Positions 1,890 to 57,539 of a stretch of 64,000 nt of DNA are shown in pieces (positions within the stretch are counted from its first letter, which is position 1; every line of letters begins with the position of its first letter). The notes beneath the pieces are model-generated. The model was given only the letters and a program-made list of their open reading frames with translations. It had not been told where the DNA came from and made no database searches. Made by a program: the position numbers and the translations under genes. Location: positions 1,924,001 through 1,988,000 of the forward strand of contig CM097885.1 in NCBI GenBank assembly GCA_044892525.1, given 5' to 3'. The DNA is from Schmidtea polychroa (Eukaryota).

Positions 1890-4800
1890 TACCTAGGGGA
1901 AGAAGAGAAATATACACACGCTCAGGTAGAGTGCCCTTATGTGTAGCCGTGGTGATGTAACACGTTGGTATTGTACATGTAGGTCGGAATCTACCAGCAG
2001 GTGAGCTCCCATGGTAGAACTACTCCCGGTAGAATTCACAGTTCGGGTCCAAGATTGCCGTAGAAGGGCTTACCTCAATCATTTACACAAACCGACGTCC
2101 TGGTCCAAGGGACGTCTTTCTATAACTAAACTTCTCGATCATATCAACTCCTATGAACTCCAAACACAAATTCAGTATAATCAATCACAACTTGATAAAT
2201 TCAACGTCAATAAATTTTATTGGGTGACATCAAAATATACAATAGATCACAAGTGAGTAAATCATCAAGTAAAAACTGACAGCGTGCATTCATACATTTC
2301 ATTTGGAAATGAGAATCTTTGAACAGGGATTGATTTCATGTGACTTGGATAATAACGCATCAGATCATTTCGCCATCGGCTAACAGGGCGTCGATGTCCA
2401 CCTGTAGCCGGGCATCTTTTCTGATCTGAGATATCTCGGCAGAAATTATTCGGAAGTCCTCTCTCGGGGCGGATACTTTGGTCCTTGGGACTTGCTCCTT
2501 GGCAGACTGAGAAGCGAACAGGGATGCTTCGGGAGCAGCAGTAGCTTCTGGTTTTTCTCGGCCCGCGATGGGCGTTTTCGCTTCTTGATAGATGAGACGG
2601 GATGGTTAGCATTAAAAACAGGCATTGATGTAACAGTAGCTCCTGTAGGTTCCGTAGACGTGTTATTTACCATGGAGGACCCTGATAGAATTGGATCTAT
2701 TAAAGGTGGGAACTGGTTTCCGTGTCCGCCACAACTGGACTTTAATAACTGTGGTTCAACTTCTTGATGATGTACAAGGAATACGTTAGTCCATCTTTTA
2801 TTGGGTATTCCCGAACTCCCGCTGAATTTCCGCCTCTGAGTATACTTTATGTAGAGCCTCAGACTGGGCTTTTATTGTCAAACGTTGACATCGGCTTTTT
2901 TCTAGGAGGCTGTCTCGACAGTGCTCCAGCCGTAATATCTTAGTCTTCTCCTCCTTCATTTGGGAAGGGGAGAACCAGGTGCATTCATTGTGTTCGATCC
3001 GTTTTTTCAATGCTCCATTGTACTATTGAAGTTTCTTTATGTCAGCGCAGGAGTAGCATGGTTGAGGACCATTCGGTGGCAGATTTGGCTCGCACATTCT
3101 AAAGATGAAGTTTTTAAGAGAATTTATTGTAGTATTGTAACGCAACTAGTCGCCGAAGAGTTGGGGATGTTTATCATTTACGCCTTCCCTTCCATCATCC
3201 TACATTATTACCCACAACATTTATTGTATTTTTGGTCGTTAAAACCTTATTCTGCGGGCAAAGATTTGATCAATGTGAATATTTTTAATTAAATTTTTCG
3301 TCATCATTTCACTTTATTTGAAGGTTACGTGTGAAAATCAAGCTTTAGATTATTATTAACAGGGTGTATGGTGGATTTTATTGTGAAAGTTCGAAAATAT
3401 CAGATAGGGATAGGTAATCGTAGAATTATGTATGAATATCTTTAATCCAAATTATTCGAATTGAAGATTAATCGTTTGAAAATTTCTACTGTTTATCTAA
3501 TGTATAATGTTCACGTCGGTCGTATGATTTTCATTATGTTAATTAACTGACCTCTATAAACTATCTCTCTATACTACTCGAGATTTTATCGCGTCATCGG
3601 TGAATTCGCATTACTTCAGATTAATGTCACTATTTATATTGGCGTGGTATAACTTCCTGTCAACAAATGCGGAACTTTTAGCTAAACCAAGGAATCGATG
3701 AATTAGTTTATTTACGTCATTCTTAGCTTTATTTATGCAGAATCCAACAACCTCATGCGACGAAAATTCTATTCAGCGGATGTTTATTAAGATAAAATCA
3801 ATCGTCGTTGTCAACGAGCGAAAGTCTTTCGAACGGTAAATCGTGATCGCAATGGCTATATCGAAAAATCATAGAACAATAATGGATCTGACATGATGTC
3901 GAATGTTGGCTTTCTACTAGAATTATGCCCTCTTTAAATGTCGAATACGTTTCGATAAAAACTTATGGCCACAGACTTATCAGTACCTGATCTCAAGATA
4001 CCTATTTGATTTAAGACGTGAAGTTAGAAAAATTCTCTACGAACAGATGGATGCTGTATCTAAGTGCCGTCTCGGTGATACTTTCTCAAAAGGAATTCCC
4101 TCGTTTTCCACTGGAATTTTGATATTGGAAAACGAATTCATTGGAATTATGCGAGGTTTAAGATTCACTTGGATGATTATTTTCCCACAAAAGTGACACT
4201 GAACGCTGCTCGATGTGAACAGTTGTAAATTATTAATTCTTCCTACTCGCTCCGGTTTCATAGTTGGTTCCTCTACTTGCCAGGACCCACCTAGACACCA
4301 CCGTTATTGCTACCGACGGTCTCTAGACCGTCCTGATAGACAGATTCGCCAGATTTACATTATCGACATTAATCATAAAATAACATTGCATGAAATATAA
4401 CTATTATGAATTATTTCCTTTAATAATCAAATTCATAAACTGAAATAAATAATTTTTTACCCGGCGACCATGTCCTCTGAAATCCGAGTATGAGACGATA
4501 TAAACAAGGTTCCTTTATTAATCCTTTCGAAGGTAATTTTCCCGATGGTCTATCACAACTATTCTGATCTCGAAATCCATAAGATTCCTTAATTTCGCAT
4601 AAATCTGGAGTCATAATATTTGCAAATTATCATCATAATTCTTGAATCCTGCGATCACATATTGTTCATCATACTCAGGGTTTCCAGGCGACATCGTCAC
4701 CGGTTCCATGAAGTGAAAAGGCATAAGTTCAATTAAAACAAAATAATATTTTGGTTAGAATATATGTACCTTCTAAATATAGTTATCCATTCATAAAATA

Positions 4801-5555
4801 CCAACTAAATCATAAGTAAAATAATCAAATAATTACTTGTAGTCTTAAACGGTTAATATCTCGAAAACTGAATATGTTCCGTACTATGTAAATGCCCTTC
4901 AGTTAATAGTTCGGTGAGTAAATTGTTGATGATATCCCAGAATCCTCGAATGCGTGTTGCTAGTACTAAAATGTGGAATAGTGCTGCAATTTGCGGGTAA
5001 TCGAAATTCTCAATAATTGTAATAATAGGTTCCTTGTGATGTCTCTGTTCGCCTGCTTGAAGTTGAATTGCTGTTCCTAAGTTTCCCTGCGGAATTAATT
5101 TTTAGAAGTTGCTTAACTAACTTAGCGGCCGCCTTATATAGTAATTTTTAACCAATCATAATTAAGTCGGGTTATTTTTTGGTTATTTTTCTTTATTCTT
5201 TATTTTTTATTGTTTTTCTTATGTATTATTTTGTTTTATTTTGTTATTTTATTGTTTTATTAGCTTTCTTGTATCTTTGTGTAATTTCGCCTATTTTTGT
5301 TGGTTTTTGGGTGGGTAACGGCCTATTTTCAGTTTTTCTTTTTCTTTTATTTATTATTTCGTAATTTTATTTATGTTTTCCTATTTTCTTGTTTGGGTTT
5401 TATTTTCATATTCCTCATATTTTCTTATTTTTGTATTCTTATTCTATTTATTACTAAATTTAATTCTTTTATTTACTTTTTCTTTCCTGTTTTTTCTTCC
5501 TCCATTCAGTTCTCAGCCATTAACCGCCCAATAGCTATTTTTTCGTTCTATCAAT
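1890..5555 (-). mobile_element. Unclassified decayed repeat/LTR-like segment with a promoter and broken ORFs
   Basis: Higher GC than its flanks; purine-skewed A-rich head (5150-5550 on -); inverted CCAAT followed by TATATAAG at ~5133-5156; interrupted minus-strand ORF pieces (2446-3010, 4420-4710). No recognisable domain. Confidence 0.35.
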
Positions 5556-5992: not shown

Positions 5993-6065
5993 TTCTTGAA
6001 TAATTTATGAGTTGCTTTATTATCTTTGAATTATTAAATTGAGTGCAACATTTATTAAATAGATC

Positions 6066-6166
<101 letters not shown>

Positions 6167-6231
6167 AATCAAAAAAACGTGGCAATGATTTAATAATACA
6201 GAAACGCCAACTCAAAAAAATTCAACATAAA

Positions 6232-6272
6232 CGCGATATATTTCAATTGTACAACAATCTTCGTCAGGCCGC
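6232..6272 (-). ncRNA. Minimal type I hammerhead ribozyme-like motif (stem I damaged)
   Basis: Minus strand reads GCGGC-CUGACGA-A-GAUUGU-UGU-ACAAUU-GAAA-UAUA-UC-GCG: core CUGANGA, 6-bp stem II, GAAA, palindromic stem III, AUC triplet. Only 2 bp of stem I pair. Confidence 0.6.
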
Positions 6273-6782
6273 AATCTGGATAATCAATAATAAGACATAA
6301 AATATGCAATATCTAAACAAATTAACTAATAATAATCATCTCCAAACTGTATCAAAAATTTAAAAAAAAATATTTCAAAAAACCAAACCATATTTTACAT
6401 AGCCCCACATACATATTATTTTAAAATTAAATTTTAATTTAATAACATTTAACATTCAACATAAAATTAACAAATTTAAAAAATTACATAGTTTACAAAA
6501 CACAAACATAATTATACCACAAACACGACTCCCAACCTTCATCCTTCAATTACTTAAACACATTCAATTATAATTTAATTATAATTTTGATTAGTTTTGT
6601 AGATTGATTTTGTGTTTGGTAGAAATTTTGTAGAAATTATTGATTTGGTGGTTTTGTTTTACTGGTGAATTTTTGTTCTGGATTGATGGAATTTTGAATT
6701 GTCGGAAAGTTCTGGAATTGTTCTGGAATTCTTTGGAATTATAATAATCTGTTATTCAAAACCGGACGTCGGCAATAATTAA

Positions 6783-7497
6783 ATGAATCCAGAGTATGAC
6801 TGTTTATTCAAGTTTCTATTAATTGGAGATTCTGGTGTGGGAAAATCTTGTTTATTACTCAGACCTGCAGATGATTCTTATGCTGAAAGTTGCATAAGCA
6901 CAATTGGAGTTGACTTTAACATCAGAACTATTGAATTAGATGGTGGAGCTATGAAATTGCAAATATGGGACACAGCAGGTCAAGAAAGATTTAGAACTAT
7001 AACCTCGTCTTATTACAGAGGAGCTCATGGAATTATTGTTGTGTTTGATGTTACCGATCAAGATTCGTTTAAAAATGTTAAAAATTGGCTTAATGAAATC
7101 GATAGATATACACAAAGAAAAGTTCCAGATAAAATGATTGAGAAGAGTTCAGCCACAAGATTGTTTAATATTACTGAAAGTACTGGAGGTGTTATGACTG
7201 GTATGATCCCTGATTGTCGATCTCAAGTATGTTGTGTACAAGTGGAAGCAGCTCGATTTGAATCTAAAATTGGATATGCGATGCCTTGTGACATAATATG
7301 TCGTTCTATTGCGGATATTAATAAGCTCTATACCCAATCGGCTGAGATGCGACCATTAGGTCTTGATTTCATTCAATTTCGGTCAATGGTGGCATTATCT
7401 TATGATATTGAAATGGACAAACTGTTATTATTCAAAACTGATCCCCGTGGCACTGTGGATGCCAATAAAATTATTAATCTCTTTGTTGGATTTATTC

Positions 7498-7502
<5 letters not shown>
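6783..7502 (+). CDS. Chimeric ORF: Rab1 residues 1-109 fused in frame to the central part of proteasome subunit alpha type-6 (retro-chimera; function doubtful)
   Basis: 6783-7109 [47 protein letters not shown] is Rab1. 7110-7451 [45 protein letters not shown] is PSMA6/alpha1. No introns in the Rab part; the stop codon is the first TAA of the (AAT)n run. Confidence 0.85.

Positions 7503-7563
<61 letters not shown>
7498..7563. repeat. (AAT)n microsatellite closing chimera cassette 1
   Basis: Directly visible. Confidence 0.97.
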
Positions 7564-7564
<1 letters not shown>

Positions 7565-8329: not shown

Positions 8330-8725
8330 GCACAACAAAAGAACTAAAACAAAGGAGTTCTGAATAGATAATATTCAGCTGAATGTTGATGTATATTTCT
8401 GTTTATCTTTATCGCATAGATTTTCATTTGGACAATTATTTATCTTGTCAAAATATTTTAATAAATTTATTTATAGTTTATTTTTAACCAATCAGAGCCA
8501 GACTCAAATTTAACAAATTAAAAAAGCAAATGAAATTTTGAAAATTAAATCGATTTATTCAGATTTAAATTTTATTTTTGAAAAATAGTTTAATTTGTTT
8601 TAATTGGTAAGCCTTTCTGTATTTTAGAGTGACAAAGGCATATTTAGGTGGAAATGTTTCATTTTATGAATAAATACTGCTCATTGCTTAATTATTTACT
8701 GATATTATATTTTATTATTATTATT
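8330..8725 (+). mobile_element. Probable Penelope-like 3' end/pLTR remnant with a degenerate hammerhead at ~8626-8660
   Basis: GTGACAAAGGC..GGAAATGTTTC followed by tttcatt..taaatac..gcttaattat, similar to the tail after the hammerhead at 52030-52110. Ends in an ATT run. Confidence 0.35.
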
Positions 8726-8857
8726 GTTTCGACCAGTTAGAGGGGATTGCCTCTGACTGGCAGTTATTTGGAGTTTGTCTATCGCGTCTGTGTGCGTGGT
8801 CTGGTTAGACCGAATATTGTTGGTGTGCGCACACAGACGCGAGCAATGGAAGCTCGG
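8726..8857. other. Structured GC-rich head of chimera cassette 2: hairpins and a deleted antisense hammerhead
   Basis: Stem 8733-8743/8750-8760 (11 bp, one G-U), flanked by GTTTCGA and CAG. Perfect 15-bp inverted repeat 8782-8796/8828-8842. Small hairpins ggtct-ggtt-agacc and cgagc-aatggaa-gctcg. Confidence 0.7.
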
Positions 8858-9056
8858 TTGGTTTTAAGAGGTAATTGTTAATTGTAAATTTTTATTGATT
8901 GATTTTGGTTTTAAGAGAGGTTTTTAATAGAAATTCTGGATTGTTAATTAGAATTGATTTGTTTAGTTGGATAAAATTCGGTAAATTTTCGAAATTGGAA
9001 TTTTTTTGGAAGAGATTGAATTGTGTTTAAATTGGGATTTTAATTGCCTTGTCAAA

Positions 9057-9611
9057 ATGGCTTCAGGTGTTAAATGTGATCCTTCAGTTGATGTTACCAA
9101 TCAAGATTCGTTCAACAATGTTAAAAATTGGCTTAATGAAATCGATAGATATGAAAAGGGAAAAATTCCCGGTAAATTAATCGTATCGATTGTCACGGAA
9201 CTTTCACAGTTGTTGCCATCATTTTTCATGATTATGCATGGGATCGAGTCTTCTAAATTCACAGATAAGTTCGTCAATAAAAGCAACGATATTGTATTAT
9301 GTATTCGTGAGGAACTAATATTGAATCAGGCTATGTCGGATCTTTCAAATCGATTTGTTTGCAACACGGAAATCAGAAATTATTTAATTGAAGAATTATC
9401 TAACAGAATTTCTCAGTTGTCCGAATTAAAACATCAGGGTGCTTTGGCGTTTATTTCATGGATACCAGAAACAATGAAAATCAATCGTCGTATGATTATG
9501 GCTGCTTTAAAATCTGACGTTGGAATGGACGTGATCCCTGATTGTCGAGCGCAAGTTTATCGTGCACAAATGGAAGCAGCTCGATTAACATCTGAAATTG
9601 GACGTGACTGA
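9057..9611 (+). CDS. Six-segment mosaic ORF (184 aa from ATG 9057): cofilin N-term / Rab1 / PSMA6 / unknown / cofilin / PSMA6
   Basis: MASGVKCDPS (ADF/cofilin start, 9057-9086); [21 protein letters not shown] (Rab1, 9090-9152); KIPGKLI (PSMA6 KVPDKL, ~9153-9182); unknown 9183-9440; LAFISWIPETMKINRRMIMAALKS (cofilin FxxWxP..KMxYAxSK motif, 9441-9521); IPDCRAQVYRAQMEAAR (PSMA6, ~9531-9602). The DNA is visibly similar to 7046-7140 and 7203-7275. Confidence 0.8.
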   Translation: MASGVKCDPSVDVTNQDSFNNVKNWLNEIDRYEKGKIPGKLIVSIVTELSQLLPSFFMIMHGIESSKFTDKFVNKSNDIVLCIREELILNQAMSDLSNRFVCNTEIRNYLIEELSNRISQLSELKHQGALAFISWIPETMKINRRMIMAALKSDVGMDVIPDCRAQVYRAQMEAARLTSEIGRD

Positions 9612-9683
9612 AAATTGGACAAGACATTATCCACTGTCCTCTCAATCAAATAAATTTCTCATGCGTTCTTTTGAGCTGAAACA

Positions 9684-9876
<193 letters not shown>

Positions 9877-9989
9877 TGCTAATGGAGGGGGTAGAAAGTT
9901 ATTGAGAAAAGAGAAAAACAAAAGGTAAATTTCATAATATTTATCTCAGACTGTGCAGCATTACTACCAAGTGCGGGTCCACGAGGGCC

Positions 9990-11099
9990 TCATTCATTAC
10001 TTACAGTGAAAAATGAGACTGAAGAACGATTAACTTGAACTTCTTCATGAACGGTTGATTCAATATTTATCCAATTTTTCTTTTCCCAATAGGATATTTT
10101 TGTGACCCGATAAGCTCGTGTTCGTTCTGAATGCTTAAAGCAGCACATTGTCTCCCTACATCCCTGCCGGAAGCTTTTATGCATTTGGAAATAAAATATA
10201 GGCTTCTGAGTTGAGCTAATGAAGTAAGCTAACGAGATGCCCGGCAGGAAATTGTTCCATTGCGAGAAAATCGTCACGACCAAAACTGTGAACAGGGCCG
10301 ACATGATCAAAATATCGACAAGGGTAATTACCAGTAAAATCTTCAGCACTTGTATTTTTGCTTTCGGAAGGTAATTGAGAGTTCTTCGAATCATGATGCT
10401 GCGGATAGCGGCGGAATTGTGAGAGATTCTCCAAACGAGCAAAACGACTCCGATATAGAAAACAAAGACAATGAAACACGCAACAATATAAAACAGAAAC
10501 ACAAAAATAGCTAAATGAATTTTCAATGTCAGAGAATATGAATAATTTGATAGAGACTGACAGAGGGTTTTAGAAGGGGTTGTCGAATAGGAAATGTAGA
10601 CGACGCAAGGAACGGAGCACAGTACCCCAATCACGATACAGATTGCTACAGAAAATTTGATGTTAGAAAAATTGAACCGCCTATCTATTGGAGAGGCAAG
10701 GGCGTTATATCTATCTATACTGGTGGCCGCCAATGTTGCTTGGTTGCAAGCTATACAAGAAAGAAGGACCATCACCGATCCCCGACAAATAACATCCGAA
10801 GCGAGATCAGACAAACTAAATTCCAAAGCGATCAAACTGCCACCAACAAATAAAAGAAAAACAATTGATTGATAGGACAAAGAAATAATAAAATAATTCG
10901 TGGTTGACTGCATCCTTCTGCTCTGTGTGACCACAATGAGAATGAGGGACTGGATCATAACTCCACTAATGATACATAGGAAATAGATCGGGATCATGAT
11001 CCATGGTTCACTGTTGATTGCTTTCTCAATTGACTGGTTCATCTCTGATGCTAGGTAAACAAATTCAGATGCTAAACTAAAGCAAATATCAATTACCAT
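9990..11099 (-). CDS. GPR19: Rhodopsin-family orphan GPCR, GPR19-like, intronless
   Basis: Seven hydrophobic segments, DRY motif, and GPR19-type motifs SRRMQSTTNYF, RRTLNYLPKAK, SSTQKP (KP in place of NP), FRQGCRETMC, RAYRVT..KKNWI. Confidence 0.85.
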   Translation of the reverse strand: MVIDICFSLASEFVYLASEMNQSIEKAINSEPWIMIPIYFLCIISGVMIQSLILIVVTQSRRMQSTTNYFIISLSYQSIVFLLFVGGSLIALEFSLSDLASDVICRGSVMVLLSCIACNQATLAATSIDRYNALASPIDRRFNFSNIKFSVAICIVIGVLCSVPCVVYISYSTTPSKTLCQSLSNYSYSLTLKIHLAIFVFLFYIVACFIVFVFYIGVVLLVWRISHNSAAIRSIMIRRTLNYLPKAKIQVLKILLVITLVDILIMSALFTVLVVTIFSQWNNFLPGISLAYFISSTQKPIFYFQMHKSFRQGCRETMCCFKHSERTRAYRVTKISYWEKKNWINIESTVHEEVQVNRSSVSFFTVSNE

Positions 11100-11824
11100 G
11101 GCAACAGAATTTGTTTTATTTTTAACAAGATGAGTAGAAAGGAGAGAAATACGAAAGAGACAAAATCAAAAATTATTTCCCATTTCTAAATTTAGCATAC
11201 AAAATAATGAAATGTACTCGGGCAGCTCGCGGTTTTCCTTAGTTGAACGCAGCGCTTGGAAACTGTGACGAGATGGGATTTAATTGCTTCCTCGTTCTGG
11301 GGGCATTTCTCACGTATCCATCATTACCTCCCCTTCCTTCTCATCTCCTAGGAATATAATAATAGCGATGCAAATCTTGTGACCCTGATTATATATGACT
11401 AGTTATAAAAATGGAGGGCAGCCCCTTGTAATACATTTTGATATTCATAATTGTTTCATATCTAAGCATTACTACTCAATGTGGAAACCTTGACACAAAT
11501 GGCCGCTGATGCTGCCCAAATGGAAACCTTCAAATTACTTACAAAATAGATGAAAATGGGCCCTGCAAGCCTGGCTCTATATTTAGTCTGTAACTCCATT
11601 TTAATTGCAACCAAATCCATTCATAGCTACCTTAGCCAACCCTTCGTTGTCTCTCATTGTCTGTTACATTTTGTAACTCGGGAGACAAAGTTCTGTAATC
11701 AGATAGGAGCTCAATTAGTTAAGGTTTCCACTCTAATCCTGATCTTGGAGGAGCCTTCCTATTCATACATCATTATCATTCCTTTGCTGGTGTGTTCATA
11801 CGGTGCATTCAGAAGTTCTTGATC

Positions 11825-17371: not shown

Positions 17372-17483
17372 GTGTGTTTGGGTCATTCTATCGCCTATCA
17401 CTAGCAAGGAAGCATTTGATTGGCCATTTGATTTTCACTTTCCATTTGATACAAATATTTTTTGTAATTTTTTACTATTTTAT

Positions 17484-33737
<16,254 letters not shown>

Positions 33738-42279: not shown

Positions 42280-42990
42280 CAACGGTGGGCAAATGGGGCT
42301 CTTAGAGCCGCATGCGGCTCTTCGTTGAGTAAACTGCGGCTCATTGATAATTGAATTCTTGATAATCGAATTCGATTTTATAAATCTACATTTGCATTTT
42401 TTGTGAACCCATTTATTTGTGATATTATTGAAGATGGATTTCCAATTTCTGAAGTAATACTTGTTAAAAAAGCGGTTGGGGAATTGGAGTTATTAGATAT
42501 GAAAGAGGACCAGGCTTTGCAAATGCACCATAAATCTACTTCTATAGTTGAATTTTGGAAAGTCGTACCAGAGGCAAAATATCCACACTTAAAACAAGCT
42601 GCTTGCCGTCTAATTTCAATTTTTGGTACAACATATTGTTGTGAATCTTTGTACTCCACAATGAAGTTCGTAAAGTCGAAATATCGTTCACAGTTGACCA
42701 ATCAGCATCTTACAGAATTGCTGCGAACAGCTTTAACAAAGTATACACCAAATTTCAAAGATTTGACCAAAATTCTTCGTTAATTCAAGAAATTTTATTA
42801 CTTTTTATTAATGGATTTTTATGTTTGTTACTTAATGTTTGAAATAATTATTTTGTTTTTTTTAATAGCGTTTAAGTCTCTTTGATCAAATTAATGAAAT
42901 AAAAAAAAATATGTACTTTACTATGGTGGCTCTGTAAAAAATAAATTTTCGGAAAATGGCTCTTATTGAACCCATGCGTGCCCACCCTTG
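42280..42990 (+). mobile_element. Internally deleted hAT (Charlie/SPIN/GTF2IRD2-like) element keeping the C-terminal dimerisation domain
   Basis: TIRs CAACGGTGGGCA / TGCCCACCCTTG (11/12); perfect 8-bp TSD GCATATAG at 42272-42279 and 42991-42998; ORF EFWK..YPHLK..FGTTYCCESLYSTMK..KSKYRSQLT. Confidence 0.92.
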
Positions 42991-52569: not shown

Positions 52570-55500
52570 TCAGATAAGTTCCTTGGCTAAATAACTGGAT
52601 AGCTTGCTCGACTTAAGGTAATATTTTATAGAGATTACACGTGTCAGTTGCCTGAAAGATGAAGAAGCATCCTAGAAGATAACGAAATTACTATGGTGAC
52701 CACTGATATTTTTTCTGATGAACTTATTTATTCCTTCACTCAACAATGAGAATAAATAAAAAATTTAACATTATACCATTGTCGTATCTAATTCTTTACT
52801 GATTCTTCTCAACCATGTAGAGGAGCTATTAAAAGCTTGGTCAGACCACGTGGCAATACTGATGCTTATTTCGGAAAAGACTGTCAAATCATCTTCATTG
52901 CCCTCATAAACATTACACAAATGCACTAAGTCTGGGACACATTTCTCGATATCCGTTCTGAGTAAGCATCCGTTTTTTACAGCTTCTTTCATGCATGCCA
53001 TCCGATATGTCAGTGTAGGATCTTGTCTGTGTACAAGTTTCCACACCTTCAAATTGAGGATCTAGAAAGGATAAAATCAAATCCTCTCAAATCGTAATTA
53101 ATTCATATTCATACACATCATAGGTAATACTTAGCTAAATATTCTATGCGAATGATTCTCCCTTTCCTTATTCTGACGTTTCTAGCCTATGCAATTATAT
53201 TTGTGTCATTGGTGATAAAATCTGTGGCCCCGTTCCCTCCATTTACCATGTCAGTTAGTGTCAAATGCTTTATTCTTAATGGCATAAAATCCTTCATTTA
53301 ATAAAATATTGAAGACTAAATAAAATAAGCGTTTGCACTAACGCCTTGTGATCTATACCATCAACTTTTAAGATGACCACGATTACTGTGAAACGTCATC
53401 GGAATGGTCCTGCCTATCGGTCCATTGTGTCCATTAATTTGATTAATTTTAAAACAAAATAAAACAATTGTCTGATTTATTGCTGAATCCGCTGTGACCG
53501 AATTCTGTGCCACACCTATGCACATGTATTCATGCATCCATACACACACATCCACCAGCACATGCACCAGCACAGTGAACGGCAATACGATTGGATAGAA
53601 TCAATTACAATTACGTGTCAATTAGGCCCTCCACTGATCACAGATTTCATAAAATCATACACAAATTCGTTACAACTTAATTTTTATTGTGTCAAATCTG
53701 ATCCAATTTATCAGTTTTGCTTGTGCATTTGACATTTTATCATTGCACATTTGACACAATAAAATGTGAATGTCAATATCTGGCTCACAGGAAACTGGTA
53801 CACATCAGGAAATGTGAGACAAATAAATGACAATAATCCATTGCACATATTTGTGTTGATTTCAGGCTTTTAATGGATAATTATGTGTCAGCTCAGAGGG
53901 GCTAATACTTTTCAATATAACATTAGAATACTTTAACTGGAAAAAACTTGTATCAAATGCTTTTTTTCATTAAACATTGTTTATATTATTTTTCTCTTAA
54001 AGAATTGATGTAAATAAGCTATATATTTGCCTCGGCCGAATTTAATGTTTCGAAATTACACATTTTGTATTACAACCTTACCCCCATAAATGAGCTTATA
54101 CGAATGATTTTGTTTTACTCGAAATCTTATTTCAAAGTTTATGAACCAACCGAAGATGATTAAATTACATATAGTTATTAATTTAGCCAATGTTAGATAT
54201 AAAATGCCAGCAAAAATAACGGGGAGGCAATAAAATTAGCAAATTCACCAGGATTAAAATTTGGTTGTTACAAGCAATTATGATCAAGCTTTCAAGCGAA
54301 ATGAGCAGCCAGCATTTCAGTAAATCTCACTTGCTCAGAAAATATAGCCGTGAAAACTGCCCTGAAGTGGTACATGTCTTGGACGTGGGTTAAAAGGTAG
54401 TCAGCGCACTTTATCCAGAAGAAAATCAAATTGATTCGCTTCTCAGTTGATGGGGTGCTGACAATAGTGGCCATGATGAAGAGAGTTAGAGCAGTCTGTC
54501 TAATATGAAAAAAATAGATAAAAACGAACAATAAAATATATAGAAAGTTTTGTTAATGAAATGAAATTATATAGCAAATATAAAAGAGCGAGTTACAAAA
54601 CACAATAATTATATGAAAAGTGAACTGGCAAAGTTCATAATCAATAAAATCTTTTATCCCTTTTACCATTGGTCTATTTTTATTTTCCAATCAGAATACG
54701 AAATAGAAAGAGAACATGATTTGAAAATCCGACAAGTGTCGCTCACCTGATTGACAAATCACGCTGAAACACATTCGAACCCGCCAGGAAAACCGATCGA
54801 TATCCGATTTGCCAACCGGGCACCGCTGTGGAACCGATTGCAAAACACCGAATCAATTCATCGAGCAAATGCTTGCAAAACACCAAATTGTGATTGGGAC
54901 TCGACAACAGAAAACCCGCAGCCCGATTGATTGCCAATTTGTCGAATTCGTTTTGGATTTGTCCAATGTTCGGCATTTGATGATTTGCCAATGAGGCCAA
55001 CTTGATGAAACTGACCAATCCGATCGATTTCATCGCCACCAACGGCGCAGGAGTCCTGACTAATCGACCGGATTGGTCATCAAGACTGTCCAGCCCGTAG
55101 ATATCGAACCCCCGGTTGCCAGTCGAAGTATTGGGCGTGTTAGCTGTCAATGTTGCCGTGGAGTCGCGCTCTTCACTAGCAGGGAAAAATCGATTGTCCA
55201 TCGGTCGCGTCACAATTGCATTTATCGGATCTGAACGGCTTTCAAATTCAATGTATTCTGATTGGGTGACTCGCTGATTGGCCAATGATTGGCCAGTTAG
55301 CTGATTGGCCAATGATTGGCCGGTTAGCTGATTGGCCAATGCCTGACTTGCTGATTCATCCAATGAGTATTTCTTGCCACTCAAATCCACCGAGGACGCC
55401 AAATTGAGTCCAAAGAGGCTCGGCGAGCGATTTTCCGCGCTGAATCCCCTGCGTAACTGCTCGCGTTTCAGCGCCCCGTCGGTGTCCTTGACCTGGCCGT

Positions 55501-56245
55501 AATCGCTGTAATCCCCGGCTTCTTTGTACAGCTTTTTGTTGCGGATCTTGATGTTGCTCGGCCGCAGCTTCAAAAGCAAATGTTTGCTGCTTAGCAACTT
55601 GAAGCTGGGCTTCCTCGGTTTGTGGGGAGCATCGGAATCGTTCTGGTGGAGATTCGTCAGGCTTTTATTCATTTGCGAGAAATCTGCATCGGAAAATCGC
55701 TGATTGGTCAGATAAGTTTCGCTGCCGCAGCGAGGAATCGTCGGTTTCTTTTCTGTGTGCTTTCGGAACATGTTGGTGCTTTTCCGGAACTTCGACTCTC
55801 TCTGATTGGTCAGACTCGACAATCCGTTGCTTTTTACGTGGTTCGGATCGACAGCCTTGTACAGGACCGCCTCGGACGTGTCGGAGAGGGGAAACTGATT
55901 TTCCTTGTGGAACGATATCAACTTGTAAACGGTTGGAAATTTGAATTTAGAATTTATAAAATACACCAAGCAATTTTTAGTATTATCGATGTCAGTTTGA
56001 ATAATTATATGGATATATTTCCCATTCCATTTAGACGAGACGACGAATTTATTAGTTTTATCTTCGGAGAATCTGACTAGAAATTCTCCATTGTTAATAA
56101 TACGACTTTCAGCTTCAGTTCGTCCAATAACCCCATGAAACCACATTGAATATTTTAATAAGTCCATTTGCTTTTTGATTTCATTATCCAAAAGCAATTT
56201 TGGATCAATTTGATGATGATTATCAAATTCATAAATTTCTCCCAT
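52570..56245 (-). CDS. BCAR3/SH2D3 (NSP-family) adaptor, SH2 + Cdc25/RasGEF-like domain; exons 56245-54747, 54499-54331, 53061-52777 and (less certain) 52671-52570
   Basis: SH2: SMWFHGVIGRTEAE..NGEFLVRFS..FVVSSKW..F.TV..LI.FH..PLSDTSEAVL. Exon 2 R-QTALTLFIMATIV..DMYHFRAVFTAIFSEQ joined to exon 3 ILNLKVW resembles BCAR3 (GDLYSFSALMKALEMPQ-ITRLEKTW). All introns are GT-AG with compatible phases. Confidence 0.82.
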
Positions 56246-57539
56246 ATTTCGTTTAGATTTCCAACAATCGATTAAACATCTACAATTTTTATTTTATTTT
56301 AATATATTATTCATGGAAAAATTTAATTAGAAATAATCAAAACTAAATTAGAATTAATAAAATAGTAAAATTTTTAAAAATATATATTTATGATTTACTA
56401 GATTATTTAAATTGACGTATTAAAATAAAGTTAATTGATTACATTAATATCTAAATTTGATAATTTGGATTTTATTTTGATTGGAAAAATGTATATATAA
56501 ATCATTTACAATTATTATTAAAAATAAATTCAATATTGAAAAATACAAACTTTGTCAAATTACGTAAATTTTTATGTATCTTCATTTTTTTGATTAATGT
56601 CTAAGATAAATAGAAAATGAAACAAATTAATAATCTTCATTAAAAACTTGTTTTAATTTGACAACATTTACTGAAGTTCCTGCTAATATTTTAAACCCAA
56701 ACCGATCTTTTATTTTTATTAAATTATTGAGTGACCATTCATCCTTTCCAAACACTTCTCCCGCAATCCACATGACAAAAAATGTCACCATATGACAACC
56801 TTTGCTAAGCAATGTTGGTAGGTGTGCCAAATTAGCGATTGTCAGCAAAAGATAAAACGATTAATGCCCTGATAATACATGGGTTCGCGAACTACCGATA
56901 GATAGTTTTCTACCGAGCTTGAATCTACTTTTTCAAACACTTTCTATTCTCGTCTCTCGCCATAGTTTTATGATCTTATCTTTTACCTTTCATTCTTTAC
57001 CCTAGGAATGGGAAAATCAAAATTGTCATTATTATTACTGAACATCAAATCATGTTGGCATGTGGATAGTCAAAATAGTCGTGTCAGAGTTATCGGAAGG
57101 TTCAGAATGATGAATTGTATAGCTTTCCTTGTCTAGCTGATATTGTGTATCTCTTTCTTCCGACGTTACTGGATTCACTCAATTTCCCCCGCTTAAACTT
57201 TGATTTTCCTCATGACACTACATTTATTACTTGGATTTTCTGTGCTTCTGGTTGAGGGACCTCGCCCTTTTGATGTTTTTTGGGTGCAATCAACTAAAAG
57301 CTAATTCGTTGTTCGCCAGCCTAGTAATCTCGGTTTCCAACTTAGATATTTTGTAAAGTCTATTTGCTCTTGCAGGACTTAAATCACTCACCTAGCTTTT
57401 TCATGTTCTCGGGCCTGAACTAAGTGTTCTAGAACTCTACACACCTAAGTTTTAGGCGTTCAGAATTTTTCATTTGTAAATCATTTGTATGAAAAAAACA
57501 TTGTGTACTTCTTGTCAGAATAGTGTTTCTCTCTCTGTA

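Follow-up and report, generated by a model that had tools for sequence, protein, structure and literature searches.

In the yeast element Ty1 the Gag open reading frame (ORF) begins inside the 5′ long terminal repeat (LTR) and contains the primer binding site (PBS), the LTR codons being few and the element's own. The sag ORF of MMTV is likewise in the LTR, but it lies in U3 and has its own stop codon. Acutely transforming retroviruses transduce host sequence by template switching, which results in in-frame Gag-onc fusions where the oncogene is situated downstream and is selected for its function. In cytopathogenic pestiviruses and in cellular ubiquitin-fusion genes, a captured ubiquitin stands directly before a protein, whose N-terminus is then created by host deubiquitinases.

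LTR-mediated retroposition, in the passages available from Tan et al. (2016; PMC5131818), yields partial intronless mRNA pieces, sometimes from two genes, joined by template switching; in the same passages, these chimeric retrocopies are transcribed together with the element, frequently in frame, and may undergo further retroposition, and maize Bs1 is cited. Two BEL/Pao families designated Flow, with 21 copies, are described from a planarian in the available part of de la Chaux and Wagner (2011; PMC3118150), a text where the word ubiquitin does not occur. Here we describe an LTR retrotransposon whose coding frame is begun in the LTR by host sequence and reaches Gag via the PBS and a captured ubiquitin. 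Neither a ubiquitin-Gag frame in an LTR retrotransposon, nor an LTR-started, host-derived frame reaching Gag by this route, was found in the literature searched.

The window (the whole stretch of 64,000 nt that was analysed, to which all unqualified positions refer) contains an ATG-to-TAA frame of 239 codons on the forward strand (6783..7502), which had been described from the letters alone as an in-frame fusion of Rab1 and the proteasome subunit alpha-6 (PSMA6). The fusion is real, with Pfam domains Ras (aa 10–116; profile positions 1–107 of 162; E 1.4e-41) and Proteasome (aa 111–229; profile positions 21–133 of 189; E 8.6e-16) in a single frame. An open frame of this length in DNA of 69 % A+T is far beyond chance, and the equivalent stretch of five related copies has 17–44 stops in the other two frames. 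Both domains are cut off inside their folds, and the profile limits agree with the truncations originally noted. Because the Ras profile is matched only up to position 107, G1–G3 are present, together with both switch regions, whereas the features of a functional Rab1 G4 (NKxD), G5 (SAK) and the C-terminal prenylation motif are missing. Also missing are the N-terminal alpha signature and the full-length fold of a proteasome alpha subunit, with the N-terminal 51 and the C-terminal ca. 80 residues of parental PSMA6. Parental Rab1 has RFADDTYTESYIS and EYDY where the window has RPAD, ESC and EYDC, so these residues are true departures, as had been proposed. A protein homology search with the whole ORF returned Rab proteins only, covering at most 73 % of it, and is uninformative about the fusion elsewhere.

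The switch between both genes occurs exactly where the sequence-only reading had placed it. Contigs from public runs that carry parental sequence diverge from the window at 7109/7110, one set running leftward as parental PSMA6 and the other rightward as parental Rab1, and the parental genes of the same genome position the breakpoint identically. At this point parental Rab1 continues as ...ANENVNKLLVGNK. Microsimilarity at the fusion point, a trait of LTR-mediated chimeric retrocopies, amounts here to 1–3 nt at most between the parents. The residues TQRK that follow the junction in the window are AKRK in most copies and TKRK in L041, a pattern that fits later substitutions. No sequencing run on record as RNA was found to contain the stretch and, in three runs guessed to be RNA (X1–X3; window 6170–7505), no listed contig piece spans 7109/7110 with 31 nt on each side.

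Both halves of the fusion derive from spliced host mRNAs, and capture at the RNA level, previously suggested from the lack of introns, is borne out by alignment to the parental genes. Within the captured stretches, the Rab1 parent (contig 2) has four introns and the PSMA6 parent (contig 1) has one, all of them absent from the LTRs; positions 7109–7451 align to 1817–2184 of the PSMA6 gene locus (L068) with a 40-bp intron missing. About 60 nt of the Rab1 5′UTR were captured along with the coding part: positions 6747–6796 show 88 % identity to Rab1 exon 1 (3788–3838 of L066), and better-kept copies retain 64–72 nt of this exon, with 58 nt upstream of the ATG, at 98–100 %. Well-kept copies are 94–100 % identical to the parents, the window copy about 89 %, and the best database relatives of the PSMA6 piece are flatworm alpha-6 subunits. 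As in a chimeric retrocopy, these intronless pieces of host mRNA are flanked by LTR-element sequence.

Table 1. Features at and around the window ORF, in window coordinates.
Feature	Position	Strand	Basis
(AAT)n microsatellite, outer 5′ side	6060..6165	.	read directly
Unrelated 398-bp repeat, which abuts the LTR and replaces its first ca. 215 nt	6170..6567	+	genome matches
5′-truncated solo LTR holding the ORF	about 6568..7498	+	similarity limits and family structure
Piece of parental Rab1 5′UTR (exon 1)	6747..6782	+	match to the Rab1 gene
Rab1 codons 1–109, intronless	6783..7109	+	Pfam Ras; four parental introns absent
PSMA6 piece, from parental ...TQRKVPDK to ...DPxG, intronless	7110..7451	+	Pfam Proteasome; parental alignment
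Remnant of an older LTR 3′ end within the ORF, translated as LDFIQ; a re-copied stretch of PSMA6 comes after it	7362..7375	+	copy comparison
Shared LTR 3′ module, poly(A) signal and U5 (the "16-aa tail")	7452..7498	+	homologous tails
AATAAA, 29 nt before the LTR end	7464..7469	+	read directly
(TAA)n flank, source of the final base of codon 239 and of the stop (7500–7502)	7499..7563	.	
Second, complete solo LTR of the same family	8725..9683	+	repeats D8, D9; Pfam

The window ORF is not a gene but sits in a 5′-truncated solo LTR of an LTR retrotransposon (Table 1). Similarity of this unit to other genomic copies starts at about 6574–6715 and ends at 7361–7564; the unit itself closes with ...TTCA, after which there is microsatellite and no PBS. 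Since the unit ends there, the stop codon lies in the (TAA)n flank, and the claim that it is supplied by the microsatellite stands. A third donor had been envisaged for the last 16 residues, which instead correspond to the 3′ module of the LTR: homologous tails, in every case abutting the PBS, close LTRs whose cargo is PSMA6, MsrB, adaptin-like or phosphatase, and are thus common to LTRs with quite different contents. The full internal duplicate, comprising the older 3′ end and the re-copied PSMA6 stretch, is seen in four copies (L003–L006), and two shorter LTRs (L034 and L045) stop exactly at the LDFIQ-coding motif and have target duplications. The second solo LTR shows a 5-bp target duplication (ATTAT), with (ATT)n at both flanks, and its mosaic ORF (8985–9611) is composed of cofilin-like, Rab1 (last 29 aa) and PSMA6 pieces. 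The window copy is a dead relic, without the LTR 5′ part or an internal region and with a frame that runs out into a microsatellite. ORFs of this type form the opening, LTR-borne section of a longer frame consisting of cargo, PBS, ubiquitin and Gag, a context that the first reading had missed.

The repeat upstream of the truncated LTR gave 48 matches, mostly with 94–98 % identity, to its positions 1–398 only (40 of 614 first-look candidates were scored). Several of these matches occur in inverted pairs.

The family is very abundant, and candidate LTR loci at first look number 1487–1590 across the 781-Mb, flatworm-like genome; the search with the repeat unit gave 41 matches, with 40 of 1487 first-look candidates scored, and that with the 5′ 296 bp of the unit also gave 41, with 40 of 1590 scored. 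Copies were found in both orientations. The unit is only 1.0–1.3 kb long, with a sharp start (TGTTTCGACC...) and TG...CA termini, and each of the four 3′ variants has AATAAA ca. 25–35 nt ahead of the end of the LTR. A perfect 5-bp target duplication was identified for 22 of 42 LTR starts, at a ...CA end 12–60 nt past AATAAA, and 13 of these 22 are in non-microsatellite sequence; A+T microsatellites adjoin half of the examined copies. Element A (L051) contains two direct LTRs, a 1155-bp 5′ LTR (258–1412 of that locus) and a 3′ LTR (4658–5295), which are 97–99 % identical where both are present. They enclose an internal part of 3.2 kb that begins with TGGTAGCAGAG... after the 5′ LTR and, in this one element checked, ends with a polypurine tract (AAAAGGAGGGGGGGAAA) immediately before the 3′ LTR. 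Likewise, L070 contains LTR ORFs at 356... and at 4273–4884. The motif TGGTAGCAGAG... directly follows the LTR in all 11 junctions; it presumably functions as the PBS, given its resemblance to the 3′ end of initiator tRNA, and no tRNA was found within the 64-kb window. A cargo-less LTR of 195 bp also exists (L059), and therefore the cargo is an insertion between the LTR 5′ part and the PBS. The 5′ part is short, with hairpin- and TATA-like sequences, and host mRNA pieces lie downstream of it and upstream of the PBS. The family is a gag-only, non-autonomous LTR retrotransposon with a BEL/Pao-type Gag.

The LTR carries no stop codon of its own in the cargo frame. From the 5′ LTR this frame crosses the PBS (..H-GSRAWFRLASR..), a linker of ca. 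50–125 codons and one or two ubiquitin or ubiquitin-like units ending in GG, and runs directly into Gag. Eight of the 11 distinct LTR-PBS junctions, with five different cargos, stay free of stops in the PBS frame over 140 codons or more on their upstream side, and the junctions of L070 and L071 are likewise open. Between the ORF start and ubiquitin, five copies contain no stops in frame versus 17–29 and 30–44 in the other frames; for the linker between PBS and ubiquitin alone, the figures are 0 versus 3–12 and 6–19. Pfam identified Ras, Proteasome and two ubiquitin units in one open frame of 490 aa, and EAP30, Proteasome, ubiquitin and DUF1759 in one ORF of 1153 aa. Open frames of at least 1148 aa are listed at 24 genomic places, and in both copies read of these 24, from the EAP30 subfamily, the ORF of 1148–1153 aa is intact. 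In contrast, Gag is broken somewhere in every full-length Rab1-type copy read (A, B, D, L062 and L065). Cleavage after ubiquitin is uncertain in the Rab1-type elements, because the unit adjoining Gag ends in LGLAGG and not in LRLRGG.

Gag contains DUF1759 (PF03564), above the cut-off in two ORFs (E 7e-8 and E 2e-12), as well as CCHC knuckles; in the atlas it neighbours clusters of DUF1759, at a score of 0.80 that serves only as a lead. The Pfam analysis of the 911-aa and 1153-aa ORFs revealed no Pao peptidase, RT/RNase H or integrase, and the copies read are therefore non-autonomous. Among 45 more distant Gag relatives scanned, Pao peptidase (Peptidase_A17) was present in four and RVT_1 in eight, with Integrase_H2C2 and DUF5641 also occurring; relatives bearing Pol domains show 32–35 % identity. 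Ubiquitin precedes DUF1759 in five of these 45 relatives, four of which have it ending in GG, and one of the ubiquitin-Gag relatives has a piece of Hsp90 ahead of ubiquitin. The retention of ubiquitin in Gag relatives that are only 28–46 % identical suggests that it is functional. A homology search with the ubiquitin-Gag region returned only polyubiquitins and is uninformative about this fusion elsewhere. A gag at L048/L055 was discarded as belonging to another element, as it has neither the PBS motif nor a Pfam match.

PSMA6 is the piece common to most LTR variants, the other cargo pieces being Rab1, MsrB, ESCRT-II/EAP30, adaptin/coatomer-like, dual-specificity phosphatase and cofilin; all read in the sense direction, keep their native frames and share one phase. 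Cargo dN/dS had a median of 0.92 over 698 pairs from 38 copies, a sample that was partly picked by similarity to the window ORF (L001–L030) and that left out 19 copies covered over less than 520 nt as well as one member of each of two duplicate pairs. Cargo variants are distributed over the three codon positions as 20/20/17 when shared and 65/77/63 when singletons, and shared variants comprise 47 non-synonymous versus 10 synonymous changes. The two intact copies differ by 10 synonymous versus 1 non-synonymous changes in the N-terminal part of Gag plus DUF1759, and both cargo indels are in frame, in a within-subfamily comparison that consists of these two copies and includes two substitutions in the cargo. 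Evolution is neutral in the cargo (dN/dS about 0.9) and constrained in Gag. The sequence-only reading had offered three options for the fusion (neutral cargo kept open, a source of small RNAs, or a dominant-negative protein or decoy); the first of them fits best with this ratio and with changes spread evenly over codon positions, whereas the last conflicts with neutral change at the amino-acid level and with the repeated replacement of cargo.

The cargo is probably a tolerated in-frame leader, which would stay open because it is translated ahead of ubiquitin-Gag. Transcription would start upstream of the cargo, placing it in R/U5, and translation at the cargo AUG, which in the Rab1 type would be that of Rab1 itself with its own 5′UTR. 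New cargo would be acquired by template switching of the reverse transcriptase onto co-packaged host mRNAs, with only in-frame, stop-free insertions surviving because any other would block the translation of Gag. Host deubiquitinases would cut past the GG of ubiquitin and free Gag regardless of what lies upstream, so that the cargo could drift neutrally and be often exchanged.

Alternatively, the cargo might matter as nucleic acid, with more than 1000 LTR copies yielding antisense piRNAs that would act on Rab1, PSMA6 and other housekeeping mRNAs or, in a variant, with the cargo shielding the 5′ end of the element, as piRNAs against it would hit essential genes. This would agree with the high identity to parental mRNAs, which extends over about 400 nt for Rab1 and about 340 nt for PSMA6, with the large number of candidate copies in both orientations, and with the equal drift at three codon positions, which an RNA-level role and the lack of any function also predict. 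There is also a precedent in planarian SMEDWI-3, which antisense piRNAs direct to coding mRNAs (Kim et al., 2019; PMC6824462), but the available passages of that paper, with no occurrences of proteasome and one of rab, name neither gene as a target; moreover, a role as nucleic acid does not need the in-phase joining of all cargo pieces, and we regard it as unlikely. Such a role is compatible with a translated leader. That the open LTR-PBS frame is a by-product, with translation from a Met in the linker and the cargo being an untranslated leader or U3, appears quite unlikely. Initiation inside the linker is possible, because the first in-frame Met of the cargo-less L059 is about 19 codons past the PBS, and linker Met codons are present in all copies; the cargo AUGs would, however, then act as upstream ORFs. 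This possibility also has to face the fact that all cargo types are in phase, with no stops up to ubiquitin versus 17–44 in other frames, that eight of 11 junctions are open, and that the two indels separating the intact copies preserve the frame.

The fusion protein could itself have a sequence-specific role favourable to the element, such as a dominant-negative Rab1 or a proteasome decoy; G1–G3 and both switch regions are retained, and Rab1, adaptin/coatomer-like, ESCRT-II, PSMA6 and ubiquitin all touch membrane traffic or protein turnover. Nevertheless, a dN/dS of about 0.9, the excess of non-synonymous shared variants (47 versus 10), the loss of conserved Rab residues, the truncation of both domains inside their folds and the free swapping of cargo between subfamilies make it very unlikely. 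Many intact ORFs of equal length and purifying selection on Gag would also be expected from a domesticated, immobile family of Gag-derived host genes, but this is rendered highly improbable by the paired and solo LTRs, the PBS and polypurine tract, the 5-bp duplications found at numerous unrelated sites, and a candidate copy number in the hundreds to thousands. Finally, the mosaic composition from pieces of genes, and an (AAT)n run past the unit that resembles some LINE tails, might suggest capture at the DNA level (Pack-type or Helitron) or chimeric retrocopies mediated by LINEs. We consider this extremely improbable, in view of the absence of introns, the TG...CA ends, 5-bp duplications, PBS, polypurine tract and Gag, and of the microsatellite on both flanks, which is the target and not a tail. 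Several specific candidates were likewise abandoned in the light of the LTR pairs, the PBS and polypurine tract, the Gag and the loss of introns: Helitron, Ginger and Transib, a Pack-type DNA transposon, and a retrocopy borne by a SINE or LINE and tailed by (TAA)n.

If ubiquitin truly frees Gag, a translated leader of this kind would constitute a natural platform for exon shuffling and would explain the build-up of more than 1000 near-copies of fragments of essential genes. We also entertain a broader reading, doubtful at present, where, in a clade of retrotransposons, ubiquitin before Gag would be a built-in insulator and the LTR leader an open slot, so that whatever in-frame piece of a co-packaged host mRNA enters it could be transported, expressed and amplified a thousandfold. 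The near-identical fragments of essential genes generated in this way (Rab1, PSMA6, ESCRT-II, coatomer-like and, in a relative, Hsp90) might feed into the planarian piRNA system, which is known to act on coding mRNAs, or shield the element from it. In practical terms, these LTRs are prone to mis-annotation as Rab, proteasome, MsrB, phosphatase or ESCRT genes, and will draw multi-mapping RNA-seq and small-RNA reads from the real genes in a regeneration model animal.

As in Ty1, the frame begins in the LTR and crosses the PBS, but here it includes 190–255 LTR codons of host origin. Unlike Gag-onc fusions and sag, the cargo precedes Gag, is not closed by a stop codon and is under no amino-acid constraint. 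The placement of ubiquitin directly before a protein is that of pestiviruses and ubiquitin-fusion genes, which are RNA viruses or host genes. With the BEL/Pao elements, as far as these are described in the available part of de la Chaux and Wagner (2011), the family shares a DUF1759 Gag with CCHC knuckles, TG...CA LTRs and short target duplications; it differs in that the copies read have no protease, RT or integrase detectable by Pfam. Partial, intronless pieces of host mRNA joined to LTR-retrotransposon sequence are also what characterizes the chimeric retrocopies of Tan et al. (2016). However, whereas those replace internal sequence of the element and exist in one or few copies, according to the passages available (PMC5131818), in the family described here the pieces reside inside the LTR, in phase with Gag and with ubiquitin between cargo and Gag, and occur in many exchangeable versions at more than 1000 candidate loci.

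The frame at 6783–7502 (+) extends from ATG to TAA over 239 open codons, with matches to Pfam Ras (residues 10–116; profile 1–107 of 162, E 1.4e-41) and Proteasome (residues 111–229; profile 21–133 of 189, E 8.6e-16). For its second half, the closest database relatives are flatworm proteasome alpha-6 subunits (52–62% identity). Reading of the frame and the Pfam matches bore out the sequence-only reading of this ORF as a Rab1::PSMA6 fusion, including the parts of both proteins described as kept and as missing. A search of its own 781-Mb assembly with these 720 bases retrieved 41 matches, 40 of them at 88–96% identity (40 of 1487 first-look candidates, i.e. loci of the genome search before scoring, were scored), and the likeness between copies spans just 1.0–1.3 kb.

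The repeat in which the ORF lies is an LTR. Alignment of 30 copies revealed a sharp common start (TGTTTCGACC...) ca. 300 nt 5′ of the ATG, with two perfect hairpins, and four kinds of 3′ part, each ending in ...CA soon after AATAAA; the 5′ 296 nt of the unit, searched alone, gave 1590 first-look candidates. At 22 of 42 unit starts, the last 5 bp of the upstream flank recur without mismatch right behind the ...CA end; 13 of these duplications are ordinary, non-microsatellite sequence. In some copies, ...CA is followed directly by TGGTAGCAGAGCG..., a motif resembling a primer binding site (PBS). In the full-length copy L051, a 1155-bp 5′ LTR is followed by this PBS-like motif, an internal region of 3.2 kb, a polypurine tract (AAAAGGAGGGGGGGAAA) and another LTR, and the whole element sits inside an (AAT)n microsatellite. 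Compared with its 5′ LTR (258–1412), the 3′ LTR of this copy (4658–5295) is devoid of LTR positions 237–751, a gap that begins approximately at the Rab1 5′UTR piece and stops within PSMA6; the shared parts are 97–99% identical.

The internal ORF codes for DUF1759, the Gag domain of BEL/Pao elements, and CCHC knuckles, and no protease, reverse transcriptase or integrase was found in the internal ORFs read. Gag relatives at 32–35% identity, from a library of 1.8 billion proteins, do carry Pao peptidase, reverse transcriptase, integrase and DUF5641. On these domains, the family is a BEL/Pao relative that is non-autonomous and has gag only. The genome search yielded 474 first-look candidates with the PBS-to-Gag stretch as query and 872 with the C-terminal part of Gag.

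Family likeness in the window copy starts at ca. 6568–6574 and ends at 7498; ca. 215 nt of the LTR start are missing, no PBS follows the 3′ end, and the outer flanks on both sides are (AAT)n. This copy is a truncated solo LTR, and the ORF itself is a dead fragment that takes the final base of codon 239 and its stop from the flank. The 16-residue tail, previously ascribed to a possible third donor, corresponds instead to an AATAAA-plus-U5 module common to LTRs with differing cargo, as we designate the host-mRNA pieces inside the LTR. A second solo LTR, this one complete, has a mosaic ORF: it opens with a cofilin-like start, continues with the final 29 residues of Rab1 and the same junction region, and reaches PSMA6 after a stretch of unknown sequence. 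The repeat adjoining the first copy belongs to a separate family (614 first-look candidates, 94–98% identity), several genomic copies of which are close inverted pairs resembling the arms of a long-TIR or foldback element.

An (AAT)n/(AT)n-type run occurs in the upstream 40 nt of 21 of 42 LTR copies, far above the 12.8% of random 40-nt windows within the 64-kb window, suggesting an integration preference for A+T microsatellites. The same microsatellite frequently resumes in the far flank, and microsatellite flanks were recorded, besides the window, at loci L002, L003, L008, L017, L028, L030, L050 and L051. Elsewhere in the assembly, at least 23 tRNA genes of equal score lie in tandem on contig 4 (76658343–76669437), mostly at 424 bp spacing, and small contigs have similar tRNA arrays.

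Features located in the window, with their coordinates
Feature	Position	Strand	Remarks
Microsatellite flanks of LTR copies	6060–6165, 7499–7563, 8690–8724, 9684–9880		
Unrelated 398-bp repeat	6170–6567		Adjoins 5′ edge of window LTR copy
Second, complete solo LTR	8725–9683		Target duplication ATTAT
Intronless rhodopsin-family receptor frame	9993–11165	-	7tm_1, E 4e-19
Intronless rhodopsin-family receptor frame	17373–17900	+	7tm_1, E 6e-15; interrupted by microsatellite
Inverted repeat, 276 nt	29807–30082 and 30582–30857		96% complementary, arms 499 nt apart; probably the ends of a small DNA transposon
Intronless rhodopsin-family receptor frame	32973–33734	+	7tm_1, E 7e-21
hAT-transposase dimerisation-domain remnant	42355–42780	+	E 6e-10
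516-codon frame with SH2 domain	54746–56293	-	E 3e-14

The parental Rab1 gene is on contig 2 (L066) and reads RFADDTYTESYIS and ...NEIDRYANENVNKLL; a paralogue on contig 1 was rejected as donor, reading EIERY. None of the four short introns within codons 1–109 of the parent is present in the LTRs, which include Rab1 exon 1 with ca. 60 nt of its 5′UTR (72/72 matches in copy L038). Likewise, the LTR piece of PSMA6, whose parental gene is on contig 1 (L068), crosses the site of a 40-bp intron that is absent from it; identity to this parent, computed from alignment lengths with the intron gap discounted, is ca. 94–96% for well-kept copies and ca. 89% for the window copy. In contigs from public runs that carry the parental sequences, likeness to the window breaks off precisely at 7109/7110, on one side of it in one set and on the other side in the second, confirming the junction proposed earlier. 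The absent introns and the included 5′UTR show that Rab1 and PSMA6 were captured from spliced mRNA, in agreement with the RNA-level capture anticipated in the sequence-only reading. The window keeps the parental PSMA6 residues TQRK at the junction; AKRK, in most copies, and TKRK, in one, fit later substitutions. PSMA6 is probably the older passenger, because it also occurs beside EAP30, MsrB and cofilin cargo; in two LTRs (L050, L063) it includes its own N-terminal part, with no Rab1. In five loci (L032, L037, L042, L044, L048) Rab1 codons 44–109 are swapped for ca. 50 codons of unknown origin, in frame with PSMA6. A second PSMA6-like stretch on contig 3 (L069, 79620700–79623200) has in-frame stops and covers more of the C-terminal half than the LTR pieces do; it may represent a pseudogene or a further capture.

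Host mRNA pieces are found inside the LTR, between the 5′ hairpin part and the PBS, and the cargo is strictly in phase and open up to ubiquitin-Gag. No LTR variant has a stop codon of its own. In full-length elements, the frame of the 5′ LTR reads the PBS as ..H-GSRAWFRLASR.., followed by a linker and by one or two ubiquitin units with their own Met replaced; the unit adjoining Gag ends in GG (LGLAGG in Rab1-type elements), and Gag follows directly. At eight of the 11 distinct LTR-PBS junctions, the PBS frame stays open over 140 or more codons on the upstream side: four with Rab1::PSMA6 and one each with PSMA6::MsrB, PSMA6 alone, an Adaptin_N piece (E 4e-26), and a cofilin start plus dual-specificity phosphatase (phosphatase E 8e-14). 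The remaining three have 34 open codons (the cargo-less L059), 54 (L061), or a stop lying three codons ahead of the LTR end (L060). L059, on the reverse strand, is a short LTR of the family, 195 bp before the PBS, with two hairpins, a TATA-like run where cargo sits in other LTRs, no AATAAA, and an end ...ACATTA directly ahead of TGGTAGCAGAG.

Five copies are free of in-frame stops between ORF start and ubiquitin, against 17–29 and 30–44 stops in the other two frames; for the non-host linker by itself, the counts are zero in frame and 3–12 and 6–19 out of frame. No copy intact through Gag was found among the Rab1-type full-length copies read. Two copies of the related EAP30 subfamily (L070, L071) each have one ORF, 1153 and 1148 codons long respectively, comprising an EAP30/ESCRT-II piece, a PSMA6 piece, PBS, linker, a ubiquitin-like unit (...CGG), DUF1759 Gag, knuckles, and a further ca. 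400 residues; they are the two read of 24 places listing open frames of at least 1148 codons.

The cargo drifts neutrally and is often exchanged, whereas Gag is constrained. We compared codons 1–193 in 38 copies (58 projected, minus 19 with less than 520 nt cover and one from each of two duplicate pairs), obtaining pairwise medians of dN 0.035, dS 0.040 and dN/dS 0.92. Variants in at least two copies were 47 non-synonymous to 10 synonymous, compared with 157 to 48 for singletons (Fisher p = 0.37) and a neutral expectation of 3.7 to 1, and changes were even across the three codon positions. There is no sign of amino-acid constraint on the cargo, either in spreading lineages or after insertion; the suggestion of neutral cargo therefore holds, and that of a dominant-negative product fails. 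Between L070 and L071, the N-terminal part of Gag plus DUF1759 shows ten synonymous changes and one non-synonymous, versus one of each and two in-frame indels in the cargo.

The cargo probably lies in R/U5 and would be translated first, and captures out of phase or with a stop would abolish Gag synthesis, so that they would never spread. Host enzymes would cut behind the ubiquitin GG, making cargo identity irrelevant. The LGLAGG ending in Rab1-type elements and the broken Gag of the Rab1-type full-length copies read weaken this interpretation, and translation might alternatively start within the linker. Several cargos are mRNA 5′ ends, for example Rab1 (with UTR and AUG), the start of cofilin, and Adaptin_N (profile positions 2–154); this would fit a reverse transcriptase that, ahead of the first strand transfer, reaches the 5′ end of a co-packaged mRNA and runs off it.

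The search for Gag relatives gave 4523 hits at E up to 0.001. Among the best 150 listed, the 45 with most N-terminal room were scanned, and five, 28–46% identical in Gag, have ubiquitin ahead of DUF1759, four of them with GG at the boundary; one shows an Hsp90 piece ahead of ubiquitin, together with a GSRA motif close to its start. Across deep divergence in this clade, ubiquitin has therefore been retained. Parallels are offered by Ty1, by ubiquitin insertions in pestiviruses, by Gag-onc fusions and by MMTV sag. Full-text literature searches yielded no description of ubiquitin-Gag frames, nor of LTRs with host-gene cargo in flatworms; the family is an unusual variant of LTR-mediated gene capture, apparently not described before. 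The word ubiquitin is absent from a BEL/Pao survey that includes a planarian (PMC3118150). The nearest printed description is LTR-mediated retroposition with chimeric retrocopies (PMC5131818); here, in contrast, the cargo lies inside the LTR, in phase with Gag and with a ubiquitin spacer, there are many exchangeable cargos, and the copy number differs too.
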